Of a DNA stretch of 39,260 nt, positions 25,337-34,525 are shown in pieces (position 1 is the stretch's first letter; every line of letters begins with the position of its first letter). The notes under the pieces were generated by a model. It made no database searches and had not been told where the DNA came from. It worked only from the letters and a program-made list of their open reading frames with translations. The stretch lies in contig CAZXCT010000002.1 in NCBI GenBank assembly GCA_964639395.1, positions 11,925 to 51,184 on the forward strand, read 5' to 3'. The translations under genes were made by a program, and so were the position numbers. The DNA is from an uncultured Bifidobacterium sp. (lineage in GTDB: Bacteria > Actinomycetota > Actinomycetes > S36-B12 > UBA5976).

Positions 25337-26500
25337 CTATCTAAGAAAGTCTGGAATATCTAATTCGTCATCAGCCGTATCGTCAAAAACCACTCGTCGC
25401 GGTGTAACCGCTTCGGTGGCATCAAAATCATTTTTTATCACCGGTTGCGGTCCTGTCGTTTCGTTGGCATTAACAAAATCTGGAATCTCTGAATCCTCAG
25501 ACTTATCGTTTGCTGCTCCAGTGGGAGTCCAAGGCCGATTGGATGGTTCGTAAGAATCAAAACCAGCCGCGATTACCGTCACCCGCACTTCATCACCCAA
25601 GGTGTCGTCAATAACTGTTCCAAAAATTATATTTGCTTCTGGATGTGCCACATCGGCTACCAGGCGGGCAGCTTCATTAATTTCAAATAAACCTAAATCC
25701 GAACCACCCGCGATAGACAGCAATACACCTTTTGCTCCATCGATACTGGCTTCAAGTAGCGGACTGGCAATCGCATTACGTGCTGCCTCGGCTGCTCTGT
25801 TCTCGCCACGTGCCATACCAATACCCATTAAGGCGCTTCCCGCACCTTTCATCACACTTCGAACATCTGCGAAGTCGAGATTAATTAATCCTGGGGTGGT
25901 AATTAAATCTGTGATGCCACTTACGCCCTGTAATAGCACGTGATCGGCTTGCTTAAATGCGTCTAGCATTGAAATGTTTTTATCTGAAAGACTCAATAGC
26001 CGATCATTTGGAATGACAATTAAAGTGTCAACTTCTTTTCGAAGCGCTTCTACTCCAATTTCTGCTTGACCAATTCTGCGCTGACCTTCAAAATTAAATG
26101 GTTTGGTAACAACACCAATCGTCAAAGCCCCTTGTTCGCGGGCAATTCTTGCGACAACCGGTGCACCACCTGTGCCGGTGCCGCCACCTTCCCCGGCCGT
26201 GACAAATACCATGTCAGCCCCACGGAGTACGTCACTTAATTCTTCGCTGTGATCTTCTGCTGCTTGTCGACCCACTGTTGGGTCAGCACCAGCACCAAGC
26301 CCACGTGTCAATTCCCTACCAATATCTAGCTTTACGTCTGCGTCGCTCATTAATAGCGCTTGCGCATCAGTATTTATCGCGACAAATTCGACACCTTTTA
26401 CGCCTACTTCAATCATTCGATTAATAGCGTTGACACCGCCACCACCAATACCCACAACTTTGATAACCGCTAAATAATTTTGCGGTGCGACCACGCCCAT
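25337..26500 (-). CDS. ftsZ: Cell division GTPase FtsZ
   Basis: 387 aa. [24 protein letters not shown], and the C-terminal peptide [11 protein letters not shown]. Confidence 0.98.
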
Positions 26501-26738
26501 GCCCCTTTGTTAAATCTAAACCTTTACTTGAGCCTTAAACTTTTTCACACATTTTGGCGGACAGAACCTATGTAATGGCCGAATCATTTGCAAGCAAGCC
26601 TGTCGGCGTGTCTCGATAATTATTTCTATATATATAGTGATGCGAAATACCATTGTCCCACCATCCACAAGCGAATGCGTTTAATAATCTTGCGGTTAAG
26701 GTAGGGGCAAGCAACGTTCAAGGGGCAGTAAACTTTTT
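26501..26738. promoter_or_regulatory. Divergent ftsZ / pntAA control region (largest non-coding stretch in the window)
   Basis: 238 nt between two divergent start codons. AT-rich core TATTTCTATATATATAGT (26621-26638). AAAGGGG precedes the ftsZ ATG. Promoters are assigned by position only. Confidence 0.5.
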
Positions 26739-27875
26739 ATGAAACTCGTAGTGGTTAAAGAAACCAAGCCAGGTGAAAAACGCGTTGCGGTAGTTCCAGA
26801 AGTAATTTCCAAGCTCATCAAATTAGGGTTTGAAGTAGAAGTAGAGTCCGGTGCTGGAGTTTCCAGTTTAAGTGAAGATCAGGCCTATTTAGCGGTCGGT
26901 GCAAAAATTATTTCTGACCTGAATCAATCACTGGCGGCCGCGGATGTGGTGGTAAGTGTAAATCCTTTAGAAGTCAGTTTAATAAAAAGTCTCAAACCCG
27001 CTACGGTGCTAATTTCTTTTGCGCAGGCTAAAAGAGATTTAGAAAGTCTAAAAGCAATTATCAATCAAAAAGCAACTATCTTGTCATTCGATTTTCTACC
27101 CCGAATCTCAAGAGCGCAGGCGGCAGACGCACTAACTTCACAAGCAACCGTTGCCGGCTATCACACAATGTTGAAGGCCTCAAGTCTGAGTCAAAGAATG
27201 TTCCCGCTAGTGATGACAGCTTCTGGAACGATCAGACCCGCAAAAGTTTTAGTACTTGGTGCAGGTGTAGCAGGATTGCAGGTTATGAGTGTGGCTAAAA
27301 AGTTGGGAGCAGTCGTCTTCGGATATGACGTGCGAGTTGCCTCTAAAGACGAAGTAAAATCAGTAGGAGCAACTTTTATTGAATTAGATTTACCACCATT
27401 AGAGGGCTCAGGCGGTTACGCCAGAGAGTTAAATGAAGAACGATCCAAGTTGCAACAAGAATTGTTAACACCTTATATAACCGCTAGCGATGTTTTAGTT
27501 ACAACTGCGATGGTGCCAGGCAGGCCCGCGCCACGACTGGTTAGCGCAGAAATGTTAAAGACGATGCGCGCCGGAAGTGTAGTTGCCGATATGGCCGCAG
27601 AAAGTGGTGGAAATGTCGAAGGAACTAAAACCGGCGAAACTATTTCTTATTTTGGGGTCACCATTTGGGGCGGCGCAAACATTGCAAGTCAAATGAGTCC
27701 TGATGCCTCATTTTTGTATTCTGGAAATATCGTCGCGATGTTGGGATTCTGCGTAAAAGAAAATGCGCTCAATCTTGATATGAATGACGAAGTGATCAAG
27801 GGTGCTGCCCTAGTGGCGCAGGGCGAAGTAGTAAATGATTTTCTTCGGCAAGAATTAACAGCGGAGTCAAAATAA
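26739..27875 (+). CDS. pntAA: NAD(P) transhydrogenase subunit alpha part 1 (dI, NAD(H)-binding)
   Basis: 378 aa. KETKPGEKRVA and VLGAGVAGLQ (Rossmann) motifs; alanine-dehydrogenase-like fold. Confidence 0.93.
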   Translation: MKLVVVKETKPGEKRVAVVPEVISKLIKLGFEVEVESGAGVSSLSEDQAYLAVGAKIISDLNQSLAAADVVVSVNPLEVSLIKSLKPATVLISFAQAKRDLESLKAIINQKATILSFDFLPRISRAQAADALTSQATVAGYHTMLKASSLSQRMFPLVMTASGTIRPAKVLVLGAGVAGLQVMSVAKKLGAVVFGYDVRVASKDEVKSVGATFIELDLPPLEGSGGYARELNEERSKLQQELLTPYITASDVLVTTAMVPGRPAPRLVSAEMLKTMRAGSVVADMAAESGGNVEGTKTGETISYFGVTIWGGANIASQMSPDASFLYSGNIVAMLGFCVKENALNLDMNDEVIKGAALVAQGEVVNDFLRQELTAESK

Positions 27876-28172
27876 ATGGATCAATTAGCCCTTTTAACTA
27901 TTTTTATCTTGAGTATTTTTGTTGGATATGAAGTGGTTTCGAAAGTCTCGACAGTTTTGCACACACCATTGATGAGTGGAGCCAACGCGATTCATGGAAT
28001 CATCTTGGTTGGAGCGATAATCGTCACCTCTCATGCATCAGGTGCGGTTGAATTAACTATCGGCGCCATTGCAATTGTGCTTTCTGCAATAAATATGGTG
28101 GGTGGATTTGTTGTAACAGATCGAATGTTGGATTTATTTAAGCCAAAAAAGAAGGCAGAAGATAAATCATGA
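27876..28172 (+). CDS. pntAB: NAD(P) transhydrogenase subunit alpha part 2 (membrane)
   Basis: 98 aa, three hydrophobic helices. VHTPLMSGANAIHGI motif. Starts the nucleotide after the pntAA stop. Confidence 0.9.
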   Translation: MDQLALLTIFILSIFVGYEVVSKVSTVLHTPLMSGANAIHGIILVGAIIVTSHASGAVELTIGAIAIVLSAINMVGGFVVTDRMLDLFKPKKKAEDKS

Positions 28173-29548
28173 ATTCTCCCGTCTGGACAGAAATAGTAAA
28201 TTTAGTTGCCGCGGTTGCTTTTATCTTGGCGTTAAAAGCGCTAGCAGGGCCTAAAACTGCTCGACTCGGTAACCGAATTGGTGCTATTGGCGCTGTCGTT
28301 GCCACCGTAGTTGTCTTTTTTGCTATCAATGAAGTTGCCAACGCAGAAATTATTTTGGTCTCTATCGCCGTGGGATCAATTTTAGGATATATCGCCGCGA
28401 AAAAAGTTCAAATGACGCAAATGCCGCAAATGGTTGCACTATTTAATGGTGCTGGTGGCGGAGCCGCCATGGCGGTTGCCTTAATTGAATTTTTAACTGG
28501 ATCAATATTTTCATCACCCATCTCGCTAATCGCGACGGTGCTAACGATAATTATCGGTGGGGTGGCTTTTACTGGCTCAATTGTTACATTTTTAAAACTT
28601 CAAGAATTGATGACTTCACGTCCAGTAATTATCCCCTTAGGAAGATTTATTACGATCGGTGTTGCCCTAGCAAACGTATTTTTTGCGATGTATTTGATTT
28701 ACTCGCCACAAGTTTGGATGATGTGGACGCTGGCGATTTTGTCACTAGTACTAGGTGTGCTGTTTGTCTTGCCCGTCGGCGGCGCAGATGTGCCGATTGT
28801 AATTAGTTTGCTAAACGCCTTCACGGGTTTGTCTGTAGCTGGTATGGGTTACGTGCTTGGAAACGTTTTGCTGCTCATCGGCGGAACGCTAGTAGGCGCA
28901 TCAGGAACCTTATTGACACAACTGATGGCACAAGCAATGGGCAGGCCACTTACCAACACATTGTTTGGAGCTTTTACCGCAACCGCACAAAGCGTTGTAA
29001 GTAGCTCAGAAGACCGCGCCGTCAAATCTGCTCAGCCTAATGACATTGCAATTATGTTGGCCTACGCTTCGCGCGTAATAATTGTTCCAGGATACGGGCT
29101 AGCTGTAGCGCAAGCACAACAATCACTTCGTGAATTAGTTGAATTGCTAATAGCAAAAGGAATAGAAGTGCAATATGCAATTCACCCTGTTGCTGGACGA
29201 ATGCCCGGCCACATGAATGTCTTACTAGCAGAGGCAGATGTGCCTTATGAGCAATTAAAAGAAATGGACGAGATAAATTCTGATTTTGCTTCTACTGATG
29301 TAGCTTTGGTAGTTGGCGCTAACGATGTAGTTAATCCGGCGGCAAGAAGTGATGCCACTTCCCCGATCTACGGCATGCCTATATTAAATGTAGATCAAGC
29401 AACGCAGGTTGTCTTTATGAAGCGATCAATGAGACCTGGATTTGCTGGAATCGAAAACGAATTGTTATTCAACGATAAAACTACGCTGCTATTTGGCGAT
29501 GCCAAAGAATCTATTACAAAAACTATTGCTGCGGTCAAGGCTTTATAA
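28169..29548 (+). CDS. pntB: NAD(P) transhydrogenase subunit beta
   Basis: 459 aa. Polytopic N-terminal part and a C-terminal dIII domain (VPGYGLAVAQAQ, IHPVAGRMPGHMNVLLAEA, GANDVVNPAA). 4-nt overlap with pntAB. Confidence 0.95.
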   Translation: MNSPVWTEIVNLVAAVAFILALKALAGPKTARLGNRIGAIGAVVATVVVFFAINEVANAEIILVSIAVGSILGYIAAKKVQMTQMPQMVALFNGAGGGAAMAVALIEFLTGSIFSSPISLIATVLTIIIGGVAFTGSIVTFLKLQELMTSRPVIIPLGRFITIGVALANVFFAMYLIYSPQVWMMWTLAILSLVLGVLFVLPVGGADVPIVISLLNAFTGLSVAGMGYVLGNVLLLIGGTLVGASGTLLTQLMAQAMGRPLTNTLFGAFTATAQSVVSSSEDRAVKSAQPNDIAIMLAYASRVIIVPGYGLAVAQAQQSLRELVELLIAKGIEVQYAIHPVAGRMPGHMNVLLAEADVPYEQLKEMDEINSDFASTDVALVVGANDVVNPAARSDATSPIYGMPILNVDQATQVVFMKRSMRPGFAGIENELLFNDKTTLLFGDAKESITKTIAAVKAL

Positions 29549-29564
29549 GAACTTCCGCTGTAGG

Positions 29565-29574
29565 TTACTAGTAA
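29565..29574. repeat. Perfect 10-bp palindrome TTACTAGTAA in the pntB-nuclease gap
   Basis: Read directly from the sequence; it is its own reverse complement. Function unknown (possible operator). Confidence 0.6.
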
Positions 29575-29578
29575 TCGC

Positions 29579-29596
29579 AGTATCTGAAAGGATACT
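29579..29596 (+). promoter_or_regulatory. Hairpin AGTATC-TGAAAG-GATACT overlapping the putative RBS of the first nuclease gene
   Basis: A 6-bp perfect stem with a 6-nt loop, followed by ATTTTC and then the ATG at 29603. The only SD-like element (AAAGGA, 29587-29592) lies in the loop and 3' arm. Confidence 0.3.
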
Positions 29597-29602
29597 ATTT
29601 TC

Positions 29603-30496
29603 ATGGTTGAATTGGCAGTTGCCGTCGAAGATGTTGGGTCTGCCTTGCCAGCACATCTCTCGCCTAGCCAATTAAGCACATTTGAAAAGTGTCAATTAAG
29701 TTATTGGTTCTCATCTGTTGCCGGATGGCGCGAACCACCCCAACTGGCGCAAATTGCCGGAAGTCTAGTTCATGATGTTTTAGAGAATTTATTAAAACTT
29801 CCTGCTCCAGAAAGAAATCGAGATATTGCCTGGGATTTGTTGCGAGAAGTTGGCGCCACCTCAATCTCGGTTAATCAATCTTGGCTAACTGCTAGCGCCA
29901 TTTCTGAATTAAAATTTAAAAGTGCTGATTCTTTAACAAACTACTTCAAGCTAGAAGATCCAGCAAAAATAGAAGTTACTCATGAAGATCTCGAGAGACC
30001 CGTAAGTGCGATAGTTAAAGACGTCAAACTTTATGGAAGACTTGACAGAATCACTCGCAAACCCGTTGTGCGAATCAGTGACTATAAAACATCGAAAAAA
30101 CCTGATGCAAAATATTTACCTGAGACGCTGCGACAGGTGATGCTTTATGCCGCTGGCCTACAGCTACAAGGTGAGAAAGTAGATGAAGTTGAGTTAATTT
30201 ATCTGGGCTCAGCTGAAAGAGTTATCCGCCCCACCTATCCGCAAGCACTCGATCGGGCATTGGTTGATTTAGTGAACGCGCGATCAGAAATGGAATCTGC
30301 CCTAGTTCGCAAAGAGTGGATTGCTAAAACCGGACCGCTTTGCAGATACTGCGCTTTTGCTCCGGTATGTCCCGCAAAAAATGAAGCCGCGGCTACCCCC
30401 GGATCAGATCAGTCAAATCAAGCACTCACCTCACTTAAATTAGAAAAACGTTTAAGGACGAACTCTCAAACTGAGACGGGTCTTCCTTTTGAATAG
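29603..30496 (+). CDS. Stand-alone PD-(D/E)XK nuclease of the RecB/AddB/Cas4 type with a four-cysteine (4Fe-4S) signature
   Basis: 297 aa. LSPSQLSTFEKC(30), GRLD(148), ISD(160)YK(162), Q(178)VMLY(182) and C(247)RYC(250)AFAPVC(256)P. Confidence 0.85.
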   Translation: MVELAVAVEDVGSALPAHLSPSQLSTFEKCQLSYWFSSVAGWREPPQLAQIAGSLVHDVLENLLKLPAPERNRDIAWDLLREVGATSISVNQSWLTASAISELKFKSADSLTNYFKLEDPAKIEVTHEDLERPVSAIVKDVKLYGRLDRITRKPVVRISDYKTSKKPDAKYLPETLRQVMLYAAGLQLQGEKVDEVELIYLGSAERVIRPTYPQALDRALVDLVNARSEMESALVRKEWIAKTGPLCRYCAFAPVCPAKNEAAATPGSDQSNQALTSLKLEKRLRTNSQTETGLPFE

Positions 30497-32336
30497 TAAT
30501 CAAATTTCTGTTCCCCCTTGGCATCCCAGCTTTGTTCACAAGCCAGGTGACTTCATTAGATTGAGCGCAACTCAAATTGGTGTGTCCAGCGAGCGAGTAT
30601 GTTTAGATAATTTTGCATTAAAATCAAGACCAAATACTAAAGTAACAAATAGCTACGCTCCAGCAAGTAAAGAGCAATTTCATAGCTTTCCACTCGCCCT
30701 AGTGAAAGATATTTATGTAGCCAGCTTAAACGCAAAAGGATTAAATTTTAATAGCGACGAAGCAGCAGATTTCGTTGCTACAGATTATAAAAATATAATT
30801 AAACAAACTAAATCACAGATACATCCCGCCACAATCAAATGGATAGATGATGCCATCGCTGGTTTTGCTAAAGCCTGGCAGGACGCAAACGCAGAGTCAA
30901 CCGATAGCGAGTTGAAGCAGCTAATTGATCCGATGTATTTTGCTGATGCGGCTACGCCAGTCGAGTTATTTGCCTGGGGTATATTTCTTGCGTCTGAAGA
31001 TTACTCATTGCGCGAATTTAGAATTCTCAAAATACATTCAGCGGGCAAGTCGGAGCTAGATCCAAATCGACTCAAGAGCATTTTAAAGATTTTGGTTCAT
31101 GGTCAAGCTAACAGTGGAATTGATTACGCCACCCCTACTGAAAAAATTAACAATATTTGGCCGACCCCCACTCGAGTTCGAATACGGGAGCTGGCAGTGC
31201 TAGATGGCTCGCAAAAGTTGATCTACGATTCACTAGTCTCAGATGTTATTTTTGATGAAGATGATTTATTCCAAGAGATCGAAAAGCGTTTAGCCGGCGG
31301 GCAACAAAAAGTATCTACTGATTGCCTTAAGTGCAAAGCGCAAACTGTTTGCCCATCGCTTCCTACTAAAGCTGGTGTGCTTGGCGTAATTAATCGGGCG
31401 GATCGCCCAAAAAGTTTTTCTCCTTCAAAATTAAATTCCTATCTAAGGTGTAATCATGCCTATTTTTTACAACATGAATTGGCATTGCATGCTGTACCAA
31501 AACTGAGTACCGCTGCTCAAGAGCGCGGAATGCTGATACATGAATGGCTTGAACAGGCTCATTCCAGAAATATAAAGTGTAGTAAGTCTGATATTTCACC
31601 AGATGTTAACAATGAATCAATTTCTCAAATTTTAAATTGGACGCAGTTGCAAGTTGAGGCAACCAATGAATATTTGAAGCAGCACCTAAAGGCATGTCCC
31701 ATTAAAAATGATTCTGAATCTGTCCATGAAGTTGATATGTGGGTAATGGATTCTGACGCCTGGGTACTGGTAGGCACAAGGCCGGACTTGCTTTACACCG
31801 ATAAAAACACCTTGGTATGGCGTGAGGTCAAAACTACCGATAAAAAACTAGAGCTATCTTTGGATGCCTATCTAGATATGTATTCGCAGATTTCATTGGC
31901 AATTGTTTTAATGTCACGAGTTAAAAACTTGCCAAACTTAAAACCTGCTTGGAACGAACTTGCGAAAAGAAGAGTTGAATTAGAAATAGTTACAAAAGAA
32001 GATGTGCAAGTTATTAAGTTCGATATTTCCGACAGTGAAATCACAACTTCGGCTTGGAAGAAACTTGCCCAGCAAGCGGATCGTTGGATTGAAGACAAAG
32101 CGTTCATTCCAAGTCAAAATCCTCCCTGTCAGTGGTGCGCCTACTCGCAATGGTGCGAATTTGCTGACACGCAGTTGAGAATGGTTGAGATTGATGGGGT
32201 CAAAGTGGACGTGGCGACTGGCGAAATTTTGGGTCAAGCGAACGCTACCGCTGAGTCCGGTCAGATCGCTCGGGCTTTGGGATTGATTGCCACAATGGGT
32301 GAAGCTGCCGATTCACCTGATGACGTTCCGTTTTAA
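30489..32336 (+). CDS. Two-domain protein: degenerate Cys-cluster nuclease-like N-half plus apparently intact Cas4/AddB-type PD-(D/E)XK nuclease C-half; ends in DDVPF
   Basis: 615 aa. N-half: LSATQIGVSSERVC(38) and C(279)LKC(282)KAQTVC(288)P. C-half: SPSKLNSYLRC(321), IHEWLE, RPD(433), WRE(446)VK(448) and C(547)QWC(550)AYSQWC(556). TTG start overlaps the upstream gene by 8 nt. An in-frame stop at 30453-30455 excludes an earlier start. Confidence 0.75.
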   Translation: MNSNQISVPPWHPSFVHKPGDFIRLSATQIGVSSERVCLDNFALKSRPNTKVTNSYAPASKEQFHSFPLALVKDIYVASLNAKGLNFNSDEAADFVATDYKNIIKQTKSQIHPATIKWIDDAIAGFAKAWQDANAESTDSELKQLIDPMYFADAATPVELFAWGIFLASEDYSLREFRILKIHSAGKSELDPNRLKSILKILVHGQANSGIDYATPTEKINNIWPTPTRVRIRELAVLDGSQKLIYDSLVSDVIFDEDDLFQEIEKRLAGGQQKVSTDCLKCKAQTVCPSLPTKAGVLGVINRADRPKSFSPSKLNSYLRCNHAYFLQHELALHAVPKLSTAAQERGMLIHEWLEQAHSRNIKCSKSDISPDVNNESISQILNWTQLQVEATNEYLKQHLKACPIKNDSESVHEVDMWVMDSDAWVLVGTRPDLLYTDKNTLVWREVKTTDKKLELSLDAYLDMYSQISLAIVLMSRVKNLPNLKPAWNELAKRRVELEIVTKEDVQVIKFDISDSEITTSAWKKLAQQADRWIEDKAFIPSQNPPCQWCAYSQWCEFADTQLRMVEIDGVKVDVATGEILGQANATAESGQIARALGLIATMGEAADSPDDVPF

Positions 32337-32360
32337 ATTGGCTATGAATAGTATTTACTT

Positions 32361-33857
32361 ATGAGTACCACACTTCCCCATTCAGTTGCCAATCCAAATA
32401 ACACTAGAACGCAAGAACTACTCTCGCGTATCCCTACCGGTCTTTTAATCGGAAACCAATTTATTGCCGGAAGTGATCCTAAATTTTGCGTTTATGATCC
32501 AGCAAATGGTGAGGTGTTAACTGAAGTCGCCAATGCCAACGAGTCTGATTTAGCTGCTGCGCTAACGCTTGCTGCCGAGGCGCAACCACTTTGGGCAAAG
32601 ACGCCCCCAAGAGAGCGGGCTGAAGTTCTCAGAAGAGCATTTGAACTCATGGTGAAACAAGCCGATGATATTGCCTTAACGATGTCACTAGAAAATGGAA
32701 AAACCTTAGCGGACGCAAAAGCTGAGACTTTATATGCCGCTGAATTTTTTAGATGGTTTAGTGAAGAAGCAGTACGCATCGACGGTTCGTTTCGCACAGC
32801 ACCAAGTGGACTAAACAAAATTATCACATTGCGCCAGCCGGTAGGGGTAGCTTTTTTAATTACCCCATGGAACTTTCCTGCCGCAATGTTCACTCGAAAA
32901 GTAGGCCCAGCGATTGCTGCTGGTGCCGCCGCGATTTTAAAGCCGGCACAAGAAACGCCCTTAACTGCACTTTTAATCGGTGAAATATTGATTAAAGCCG
33001 GACTGCCAAGTGGGGTTTGTTCAATTTTGCCAACCACTAATTCTTCAAAACTCACAAAGGCCGCGCTAAGCGATGCCCGAATTAGAAAGTTATCGTTCAC
33101 TGGCTCTACTCAAGTTGGAAAGTTGTTACTTCAGCAAGCCGCAGCGCGCGTACTTAATACCTCAATGGAACTCGGTGGTAACGCTCCTTTCATTATTTTA
33201 GATGATGCCGATATTGATTTGGCGGTTGATGGAGCGATGTTGGCAAAAATGCGAAATGGTGGTCAGGCCTGTACCGCAGCAAATAGATTCTTTGTGCAAG
33301 ATGCAGTACACGATAAATTTGTACAACAACTTTCAATGCGAATGCAGTCACTTAAACCTGGCCACGGGATAGACGAACAAACCACTTTGGCCCCGCTGGT
33401 TAATCGTAAAGCGGTTGAGTCAATTGATCTATTGGTTAAGTCGGCGATTACAAGTGGAGCAAAACAGCATACGGGTGGCTCAATAAATGAAGGCCCCGGC
33501 AGTTTCTTTCCGGCAACCGTATTAGGTGATGTTCCATCACATGCGCAAATAGTGCAAGATGAAATATTCGGGCCAGTTGCTGCAGTTGTGCGAGTAAAAG
33601 ATGAATTTGAAGCAATCGCGTTAGCAAATTTGAGTGAGTTTGGATTGGCTGGTTATGTTTACACTAAAGATGTCGCTCGAGGTTTACGGGTTTCTCAAAG
33701 TTTAGAAGTCGGCATGGTCGGATTAAATCGTGGATTAGTTTCTGATCCGGCTGCCCCCTTCGGTGGAGTTAAGCAATCTGGAATCGGCCGCGAAGGTGGC
33801 TATGAGGGAATTGATGAATATCTAGAAGTAAAATATATTGCTACTAACGATTTTTAG
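32361..33857 (+). CDS. gabD: Aldehyde dehydrogenase family, most like succinate-semialdehyde dehydrogenase
   Basis: 498 aa. FLITPWNFP, SFTGSTQVG, ELGGNAPFII and GGQACTAANRFFV (catalytic Cys) motifs. Substrate specificity is inferred by resemblance only. Confidence 0.7.
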   Translation: MSTTLPHSVANPNNTRTQELLSRIPTGLLIGNQFIAGSDPKFCVYDPANGEVLTEVANANESDLAAALTLAAEAQPLWAKTPPRERAEVLRRAFELMVKQADDIALTMSLENGKTLADAKAETLYAAEFFRWFSEEAVRIDGSFRTAPSGLNKIITLRQPVGVAFLITPWNFPAAMFTRKVGPAIAAGAAAILKPAQETPLTALLIGEILIKAGLPSGVCSILPTTNSSKLTKAALSDARIRKLSFTGSTQVGKLLLQQAAARVLNTSMELGGNAPFIILDDADIDLAVDGAMLAKMRNGGQACTAANRFFVQDAVHDKFVQQLSMRMQSLKPGHGIDEQTTLAPLVNRKAVESIDLLVKSAITSGAKQHTGGSINEGPGSFFPATVLGDVPSHAQIVQDEIFGPVAAVVRVKDEFEAIALANLSEFGLAGYVYTKDVARGLRVSQSLEVGMVGLNRGLVSDPAAPFGGVKQSGIGREGGYEGIDEYLEVKYIATNDF

Positions 33858-34525
33858 TTCTCAATCGGGACATTTATTACCGGCACTTCTGGCGTACTAA
33901 CATCAATATCACCTGTGGCGGTGCGAAGTAAAACTCTCAAAACTGCCGCCTTATCGACAGGTTTTAGTTCATCCCCCCAATTGATTCGTCTTCCTGAATT
34001 TAGGATCACCGTGGCACTAACGCCATTTACGCTCTCTACTAGTGCTACCTCACCTATCAACCACTCCGGCAAGATTCGAGCTACGCGCGCTGCTAATCCT
34101 CGCGCTGAATTATTTGGTGCGGTAACAAATCGATATACGTCATTTGGCCCAGCTCTCGTGAAAGCTATTCCGTCCTCATCTACCAAATATCTTCCATCTG
34201 CTAAATCAGTGAGCGCGATTGGAACGCGTTCGCTTACTACTATCGCAACGGTATTCGGCCAGCCCCTTCTCACCTCAACAGTATTTATTGTTTTTAAGGA
34301 TGATATTTGAGAAGCGACAGCTACGCTATCTAGATTAATTAAGGGTGTATTTAACTCTATTTCTGCTAGCTGTAATAATTCTGCTTCATTTATCCGACCG
34401 AGGCCAGCTACTGTAACTTTATTGATTAAAAAAAGGTTTGAAAAAAAAAGACTATAAACCACTGCCCCGCTGGCTAGTAGTAAAACAATCAAGATAAAAA
34501 TTAATCGTTTGCCTCTGGCGGTCAT
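33854..34525 (-). CDS. ftsQ: Cell division protein FtsQ (POTRA domain)
   Basis: 223 aa. N-terminal TM helix, then INKVTVAGLGRINEAEL...VEVRRGWPNTVAIVVSERVPIA (POTRA). Lies downstream of murC as in dcw clusters. Confidence 0.88.
   Translation of the reverse strand: MTARGKRLIFILIVLLLASGAVVYSLFFSNLFLINKVTVAGLGRINEAELLQLAEIELNTPLINLDSVAVASQISSLKTINTVEVRRGWPNTVAIVVSERVPIALTDLADGRYLVDEDGIAFTRAGPNDVYRFVTAPNNSARGLAARVARILPEWLIGEVALVESVNGVSATVILNSGRRINWGDELKPVDKAAVLRVLLRTATGDIDVSTPEVPVINVPIEN

Follow-up and report, generated by a model that had tools for sequence, protein, structure and literature searches.

A putative pseudo-nuclease domain with conserved cluster cysteines in a two-domain protein of freshwater Actinomycetota

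The N-terminal half of a 615-amino-acid (aa) protein, encoded on contig CAZXCT010000002.1 within a stretch of 39,260 nucleotides (nt) that is called the window here, is probably, though with considerable room for doubt, a real cluster-retaining pseudo-nuclease domain, which holds DNA or braces the neighbouring active domain rather than cutting. With a GC content of about 42-45%, the window looks like a piece of a low-GC actinobacterial chromosome. The C-terminal half of the protein (the C-domain) is a nuclease domain of Cas4/AddB/AdnA type, and residues 1-305 (the N-domain) would have arisen from it by an ancient duplication followed by strong divergence. A gene for another, smaller nuclease of this type is located directly upstream. 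The original prediction, made by eye from the sequence, had described the N-terminal half as an inactivated nuclease domain with four retained cysteines, and the residues it quoted (LSATQIGVSSERVC38, G164IFLA, E170/D171, F177-R178-I179-L180-K181 and C279-LK-C282-KAQTV-C288-P) are all found where it placed them. The features of the gene pair, in window coordinates, are as follows.

29603..30496, plus strand: partner gene, 297-aa Cas4-like iron-sulfur (Fe-S) PD-(D/E)XK nuclease (PF12705, Cas4 models)
30489..32336, plus strand: gene of the 615-aa two-domain protein, TTG start (open reading frame, or ORF; PDLC02423 match)
30489..31403, plus strand: N-terminal domain, residues 1-305, degenerate Cas4/AddB-like PD-(D/E)XK fold (AlphaFold2, Foldseek, hhalign)
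30600..30602, plus strand: codon of Cys38, first putative cluster ligand, just ahead of helix 39-45 (conservation, hhalign)
30963..31031, plus strand: degenerate catalytic hairpin, residues 159-181 (column counts, AlphaFold2 secondary structure, HH profile pairing)
31323..31352, plus strand: Cys triad C279-x2-C282-x5-C288 with Cas4/AddB spacing (conservation, alignment to C547/C550/C556)
31371..31385, plus strand: conserved interdomain linker P295-G296-x-L298-G299 (G296, L298 and G299 each in 83/90 sequences)
31404..32168, plus strand: C-terminal nuclease domain, residues 306-560, with its own cysteines C321, C547, C550 and C556 (PF12705)
32169..32333, plus strand: C-terminal extension ending in the acidic tip ...SPDDVPF (confined to the family branch paired with the small nuclease)

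Fold and ancestry of the N-domain

Residues 1-311 give no match in Pfam or NCBIfam even at E<=1, the nuclease models PF12705, PF01930 and TIGR00372 included. Nothing significant was found in Pfam with 48 homologous N-domains either (17-59% identical to the N-domain of the window); the best value, E 0.19 to PF12705, belongs to one member. Profile hidden Markov models (HMMs) of the N-domain, built from 13 and from 48 sequences, produced chance matches only (E > 0.5) among PDB sequences. Ribosomal protein S3, ParE and SRP68 came up in this search at such chance level and were rejected as relatives.

The fold was approached by AlphaFold2 (AF2) models of residues 1-305. The first of them, from the 13-sequence alignment, had a predicted local distance difference test score (pLDDT) of 65, below 50 in the Cys regions, and served only as a lead; it was replaced by a model based on the 48 homologues, with pLDDT 92 and a predicted template modelling score (pTM) of 0.90. 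When both models were compared with the PDB by Foldseek, solely PD-(D/E)XK structures of Cas4/AddB/AdnA/EXO5/MGME1/RecC type were retrieved, the top matches with probability 1.00 and E about 3e-5; the nuclease-like fold proposed for this half is thus the only one that either model points to. At E<=1e-3 the matches comprise Cas4-family nucleases only: ACE1 (9iab/9iac), AdnA (6ppu/6ppr/7sjr/9np6) and Cas4 SSO0001 (4ic1). ACE1 is the best of them (E 2.6e-5, TM-score 0.44-0.54), AdnA follows at E 2.8e-5, and EXO5, AddB 3u44 (E 1e-2), MGME1 and, more weakly, RecC are found lower. Secondary structure elements of the AF2 model follow each other in the order first Cys, helix, three long helices, five short strands, helix, two strands, helix and short Cys-triad helix. 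This is the order expected of a Cas4-like domain. By its pLDDT and its Foldseek matches, the modelled N-domain possesses the PD-(D/E)XK alpha/beta core together with Cas4-like decorations. A domain unseen by Pfam and NCBIfam gains a structural annotation in this way.

Comparison of profiles supports the same relationship. An earlier, shallow hhalign run (13 versus 10 sequences) aligned the Cys-triad end only, with probability 3.9%, and is superseded by profiles of 90 sequences. With these, the N-domain is colinear with the C-domain over about 255 columns (E 1.3e-4 local, 1.4e-5 global) and aligns also to the family of the 297-aa partner (E 3.3e-4; for comparison, C-domain versus partner family gives E 1.6e-11). 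The mirroring of the two active domains by the N-terminal half, noticed originally by eye, is hereby borne out. The confident core of the alignment, N-domain 193-293 versus C-domain 466-561, runs from the helix that follows motif III through two strands to the Cys triad, and the N-domain HMM directly matches the strand-to-Cys-triad stretch of C-domains.

Retained cysteines and degenerate catalytic site

Residues C38, C279, C282 and C288 are the sole invariant columns among the 48 N-domains, whose mean column identity is 33%. In the 90-sequence alignment, C279 and C288 are present in all members, C282 in 89 and C38 in 88, the remaining two being N-terminal gaps. Such a pattern is far beyond chance. 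hhalign places C38 opposite C321 in the C-domain and C30 in the partner, and the triad C279/C282/C288 opposite C547/C550/C556, which reproduces the cysteine alignments made by eye. The N-domain has accordingly one N-terminal Cys and a C-terminal CX2CX5C, a spacing typical of Cas4, AddB and AdnA. In this fold, the four cysteines act as an "iron staple", linking the N-terminal helix to the C-terminal helix via a [4Fe-4S] cluster. Binding of such a cluster by the N-domain is predicted from the cysteine pattern; the four cysteines would stay invariant because the fold needs the predicted cluster, not because the N-domain is catalytic.

The other two modules appear intact. The C-domain matches PF12705 at residues 309-557 (E about 3e-19 to 1e-20), with Cas4/AddB-like secondary matches, and its catalytic residues are conserved in 82-89 of 90 sequences (H351 in 82, D433 in 88, E446 and K448 in 89 each, Q467 in 84), as is each Cys (89). 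The 297-aa partner matches PF12705 with E 4.7e-28 as well as Cas4 models, again with Cas4/AddB-like secondary matches; H57, E131, D148, D160, K162, Q178, Y182 and four cysteines are conserved in at least 95% of 26 homologues. These conserved sets support the view, expressed already in the original prediction, of three nuclease-like modules, two of them predicted to be active.

For comparison with the N-domain, all C-domain columns at least 85% conserved were paired to N-domain columns by hhalign. Apart from the four cysteines, the N-domain keeps G347 (as G70), R445/E446 (as R175/E176) and E497 (as E234). The position of H351 is occupied by D74 (Asp in 50/90, otherwise variable), motif II D433 by G164 (Gly in 78, Ala in 11) and motif III K448 by R178 (Arg in 66, His in 11, Trp in 11). 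Columns corresponding to H358, C364, H399, C403 and Q467 are variable, E414 is replaced by hydrophobic residues, D421 by a gap or variable residues, E499 by G236 and D536 by G270. From the signature His...D...(D/E)xK...QxxxY, only the Glu (E176) is retained. Asp of motif II and Lys of motif III are thus gone from the N-domain, and so are the metal-binding His, the Gln of QxxxY and a second conserved Glu. With so much of the site lost, the domain can most likely no longer cleave DNA in the canonical way. The picture of a catalytically dead, Cys-retaining domain fused to a live one holds well at the level of conserved residues. The degenerate state is identical in both clades of the family described below, so the inactivation is older than their separation and has persisted ever since.

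The hairpin that should carry motifs II and III consists of E159, a W163-G164 kink, strand 165-168, a D171-G turn and strand L174-R-E176-F-R178-I-L-K181. Among the 90 sequences, column 167 contains Tyr (50), Leu (25), His (6) or Phe (5), column 176 Glu (88), column 179 hydrophobic residues or Arg, and column 181 Arg (43) or Lys (25). No conserved acid exists in columns 164-168, and the absence of Asp from the G164 stretch, pointed out originally, is thereby a property of the family. Two registers can be considered. In the profile register, motif II lacks its acid and E176-x-R178 is paired with E446-x-K448. In the register of the original prediction, Gly at motif II is followed by Ile179-x-Lys/Arg181; the conserved D171-G172 turn, if it forms a two-residue hairpin, would put E176 opposite 167 and I179 opposite G164. 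In either case the sequence lacks two or more of the three triad residues, and no hairpin register restores D...(D/E)xK. The claim of an incomplete triad therefore stands, but its assignment to I179-L-K181 does not agree with the profiles, which give E176-x-R178 in a stretch aligned with low confidence. In the profile register, replacement of the acid applies to motif II and not to motif III, where the highly conserved E176 shows that the site is not fully stripped.

E170, D171 and K181, named in the original prediction as a catalytic set that would tell against it, find no support in this role: E170 is not conserved, K181 is basic in 76% and D171 is a turn residue. D171 and D239 were both rejected as catalytic acids: each is followed by a conserved Gly, and both Asp-Gly pairs lie in loops connecting strands of the AF2 model. 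They are read as structural turn residues, D171 because a conserved Asp-Gly turn joining two strands starts with it.

A separate feature was observed in the C-domain. Residues H358, C364, H399 and C403, within 358-403 (window 31560-31697), are each conserved in 88-89/90 sequences as parts of the patterns AHxRNxKC and QHLxxCP, which are not present in the N-domain or the partner. They possibly form an extra Cys2His2 metal site, or a disulfide with two histidines, in an insertion of the nuclease domain.

Two branches of the family and their genomic context

A profile of the N-terminal half retrieved 182 representative clusters (E<=1e-3) from 1.84 billion representative proteins. Nearly all members are 530-640 aa long, with the N-domain at the N-terminus, and a second HMM finds the C-terminal nuclease domain in them too; the N-domain is therefore practically always fused to an active domain. 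Related loci were found in metagenome-assembled genomes of freshwater Actinomycetota, Candidatus Nanopelagicales among them. The family is present in 15/121 genomes of the window's order and in 2/400 further genomes across the phylum (3/401 with the window's own). The 615-aa protein matches the PADLOC model PprPDDEXK (PDLC02423) with E 1e-45, over residues 48-557 versus profile positions 14-442 of 449, that is, in both halves, and by this match it is a distant member of the PprPDDEXK family. Streptomyces-like homologues match the same model at E 2e-221 and are located in operons composed of the two-domain protein, a restriction endonuclease (REase), a DinG-like helicase and pPIWI-RE.

The family splits into two branches. 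The pPIWI-RE-linked one was found at five independent high-GC loci (L023, L032, L033, L039 and L040), where the two-domain gene is followed by pPIWI_RE_Y/REase, the DinG-like helicase pPIWI_RE_Z and pPIWI-RE with X, MID and RNaseH domains. Proteins of this branch stop right after the second Cys triad and form a clade of 35 rows (Shimodaira-Hasegawa-like approximate likelihood ratio test, SH-aLRT, 100), separate in the tree from the clade of the window. Four of the five operons are preceded by a Ser/Thr kinase gene (PADLOC PD-T4-6 / mad6-like), divergent or co-oriented, and two by an N6-adenine methyltransferase gene (mad2 / type I-like); the operon of L039 adjoins DUF1156/DUF499/SNF2 (DISARM-like) genes. 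The surroundings of these operons are composite defence islands.

Members of the other, stand-alone branch are paired with the small nuclease. Its Cas4-like gene lies directly upstream of the two-domain gene and overlaps its start in 20/20 and 5/5 loci with upstream DNA, and this pairing holds also in 62-70% GC genomes of the same order and in two metagenomic contigs. In the window, the stop of the 297-aa ORF overlaps the start of the 615-aa ORF by 8 nt, and both genes come after pntAB; pntAB, the small nuclease gene and an aldehyde dehydrogenase gene, the neighbours of the 615-aa gene, are all co-directional with it. Neighbours of the pair differ among five genomes of the order (a desaturase, a DEAD helicase in one, a uracil-DNA glycosylase in one, a major facilitator superfamily transporter) and no conserved third gene, either helicase or ATPase, accompanies it across them; the pair therefore has no conserved motor partner. 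The pPIWI_RE_Z gene is absent from the window's genome and 30 relatives according to a search whose positive controls matched, which rules out a pPIWI-RE system elsewhere in the window's genome. This branch, occurring in streamlined freshwater Actinomycetota (Nanopelagicales), offers a tractable two-protein system for studying the function of PIWI-RE accessory nucleases.

Two-domain proteins of the window's branch bear an extension of roughly 55 residues ending in an acidic-PF tip, which is found in 49/90 family members and lacking in all 35 members of the pPIWI-RE-linked clade. The tip of the 615-aa protein is DDVPF (window 32319-32333), and relatives end with DDSVPF, DDEIPF, DDDIPF or DDEPPF, identical to the tips at the C-terminus of single-stranded DNA-binding protein (SSB) from E. 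coli and mycobacteria. The partner itself ends with ...GLPFE (window 30479-30493), its close homologues with ...[ML]LPF(G)EE, and the tails of the two proteins can be aligned by hhalign. The tails may bring both subunits to a shared pocket, or to SSB-partner proteins.

Several other observations were made around the gene pair. The dcw cell-division cluster is split in the window: between ftsZ (25337-26500, minus strand) and ftsQ (33854-34525, minus strand), plus-strand pntA, pntB, the two nuclease genes and the aldehyde dehydrogenase gene are found (25337-34525). Elsewhere in the order, other genes surround the nuclease pair. At one related locus (L010, 2463-2951), a partial second copy (residues 4-166, 57% identity) immediately precedes the full small nuclease gene, perhaps as the result of a local duplication or as the fragment of a pseudogene. 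On two metagenomic contigs the stand-alone pair is situated near a HIRAN(weak)/DUF2510 protein and a TIR_2 protein (L041, 7887-12580) and near a GmrSD_C protein (L042, 4313-4999), a weak hint that the paired form is defence-related in some hosts too.

Possible roles and comparison with known systems

If the N-domain does not cut, it would hold single-stranded DNA (ssDNA) or a DNA end via its conserved basic residues R24, K45, R47, R175, R178, K/R181 and R231, plus E176, and position the DNA for the adjacent active domain and the co-translated 297-aa nuclease. ACE1 and AdnA thread ssDNA through a narrow, positively charged channel, their clusters being called wedge or structural (PMC12094033). 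Because of this channel and the conserved basic residues, threading of ssDNA or a DNA end appears the most likely role, and by analogy we infer some kind of DNA handling. A structural, DNA-end-sensing or regulatory role, suggested in the original prediction, has likewise the standing of an inference. A more elaborate version, which we consider rather unlikely in its entirety, would make the N-domain a dedicated threading module for ssDNA or DNA ends that serves two motor-less Cas4-like nucleases in a self-contained end-processing or anti-invader machine. One clade would then feed or trim pPIWI-RE guides, as ACE1 does for long-A Argonautes, and in the window's clade the SSB-tip-like tails gained by both subunits (DDVPF, DDEPPF) would plug into the SSB-partner network, borrowing a helicase in trans.

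Several points weigh against a pseudo-nuclease. TM-scores to solved structures are moderate (0.44-0.54), and the profile alignment of the motif II/III hairpin has low confidence values (2-6), with two registers possible. Strong conservation of E176 (88/90, 98%), R175 (84/90, 93%), E159 (74/90, 82%) and E234 (acidic in 76/90, 84%) is a further point; together with D74 (acidic in 58/90), these residues could form a non-canonical metal site. The N-domain would then be still a nuclease or other phosphodiesterase with a rearranged site (E176, E159 or E234, D74, R178/K181), and all three modules would be active. In the alignment, E176 falls on the motif III Glu, and the counterpart of E234 is likewise a Glu that the active domains conserve. 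The PD-(D/E)XK superfamily is known for plastic active sites, in which catalytic residues can be shifted or swapped, as in BamHI and BglII. We nevertheless think a rearranged site quite improbable: the position of the catalytic Lys is occupied by Trp or His in 11/90 sequences each, columns 164-168 are without a conserved acid, and at least six other residues that the active domains conserve to 85% or more are lost.

The N-domain might instead be mainly a protein scaffold, docking the 297-aa partner or, in the other clade, pPIWI-RE, REase or DinG-like partners, with a structural cluster and without itself touching DNA. At every locus examined the two genes occur together and overlap, and the N-domain evolves faster than the rest (in the relative L004, 34% identity versus 58% for the partner and 40% for the C-domain). 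ACE1, the top structural match, is described as working in a heterodimer with its Argonaute (PMC12094033). However, W163, R175, E176, P48 and F67 are kept near-invariant in both clades despite wholly different partners, which points to a partner-independent role, and many of the conserved residues are basic, so that a pure scaffold seems a doubtful explanation. Much less credible still is a sensing role, in which the retained cluster would respond to redox, iron or oxygen status, or to DNA charge transport, and turn the adjacent nuclease on or off. The cluster ligands are absolutely conserved in a domain no longer needing them for catalysis, and the window operon is co-directional with genes of pntAB transhydrogenase and aldehyde dehydrogenase, but this redox-gene neighbourhood is not kept at other loci, and fold stability alone accounts for invariance of the cysteines. 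Moreover, the known role of the cluster is structural in AddB and that of a wedge in AdnA (PMC12094033).

We thus favour the pseudo-nuclease with a retained cluster. Fe-S clusters of Cas4, AddB, AdnA, Dna2 and EXO5-type nucleases are usually discussed alongside catalysis; a domain in which the cluster would be kept and catalysis removed, with no more than about 20-30% conservation elsewhere, presents a clean natural test of the architectural or DNA-handling view of the cluster. Neither the fold nor the iron-staple motif nor the existence of dead nuclease domains is new, and the protein family is included in a defence-system database. In the literature, we found no description of the N-domain of this family as a cluster-retaining pseudo-nuclease, nor of the stand-alone branch paired with the small nuclease in Nanopelagicales, and the founding pPIWI-RE paper does not mention the two-domain gene.

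Among known systems, PprPDDEXK is closest in sequence. Two-domain architecture, eight cysteines and the degenerate N-domain are all common to it and the protein of the window. In contrast to PprPDDEXK, the window gene adjoins no REase, DinG-like helicase or pPIWI-RE gene, and its clade is paired with the small Cas4-like nuclease and bears the acidic-PF tip, which the Ppr clade lacks. AddB, AdnA and AdnB share the fold by Foldseek and the same arrangement of one N-terminal Cys and C-terminal CX2CX5C. Their domains are, however, active and fused to helicase motors, whereas the 615-aa protein is motor-less and its N-domain is devoid of the Asp, the Lys and further residues of the catalytic set.

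ACE1, structurally the best match, has a four-Cys cluster (PMC12094033) and, like the other family clade, accompanies an Argonaute-type system as an accessory. It consists of a single active D-DxK domain of about 266 aa (PMC12094033), while the N-domain is degenerate, larger and fused to a second, predicted active domain. Searches with profiles against PDB sequences and Pfam gave no sequence-level match of the N-domain to ACE1.

The last comparison concerns RecC, whose C-terminal dead nuclease fold guides a DNA strand in RecBCD and would provide a functional precedent for strand guiding by the N-domain. Judged by its sequence and model, the N-domain similarly appears to be a nuclease fold without catalysis within a nuclease machine. 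The Foldseek match to RecC is weak (E 0.2-0.6; 7mr1_C E 0.23), and the examined loci contain no conserved helicase neighbour. Unlike the N-domain, RecC belongs to a helicase complex and has lost the cysteines and the cluster too, whereas the N-domain keeps all four cysteines.

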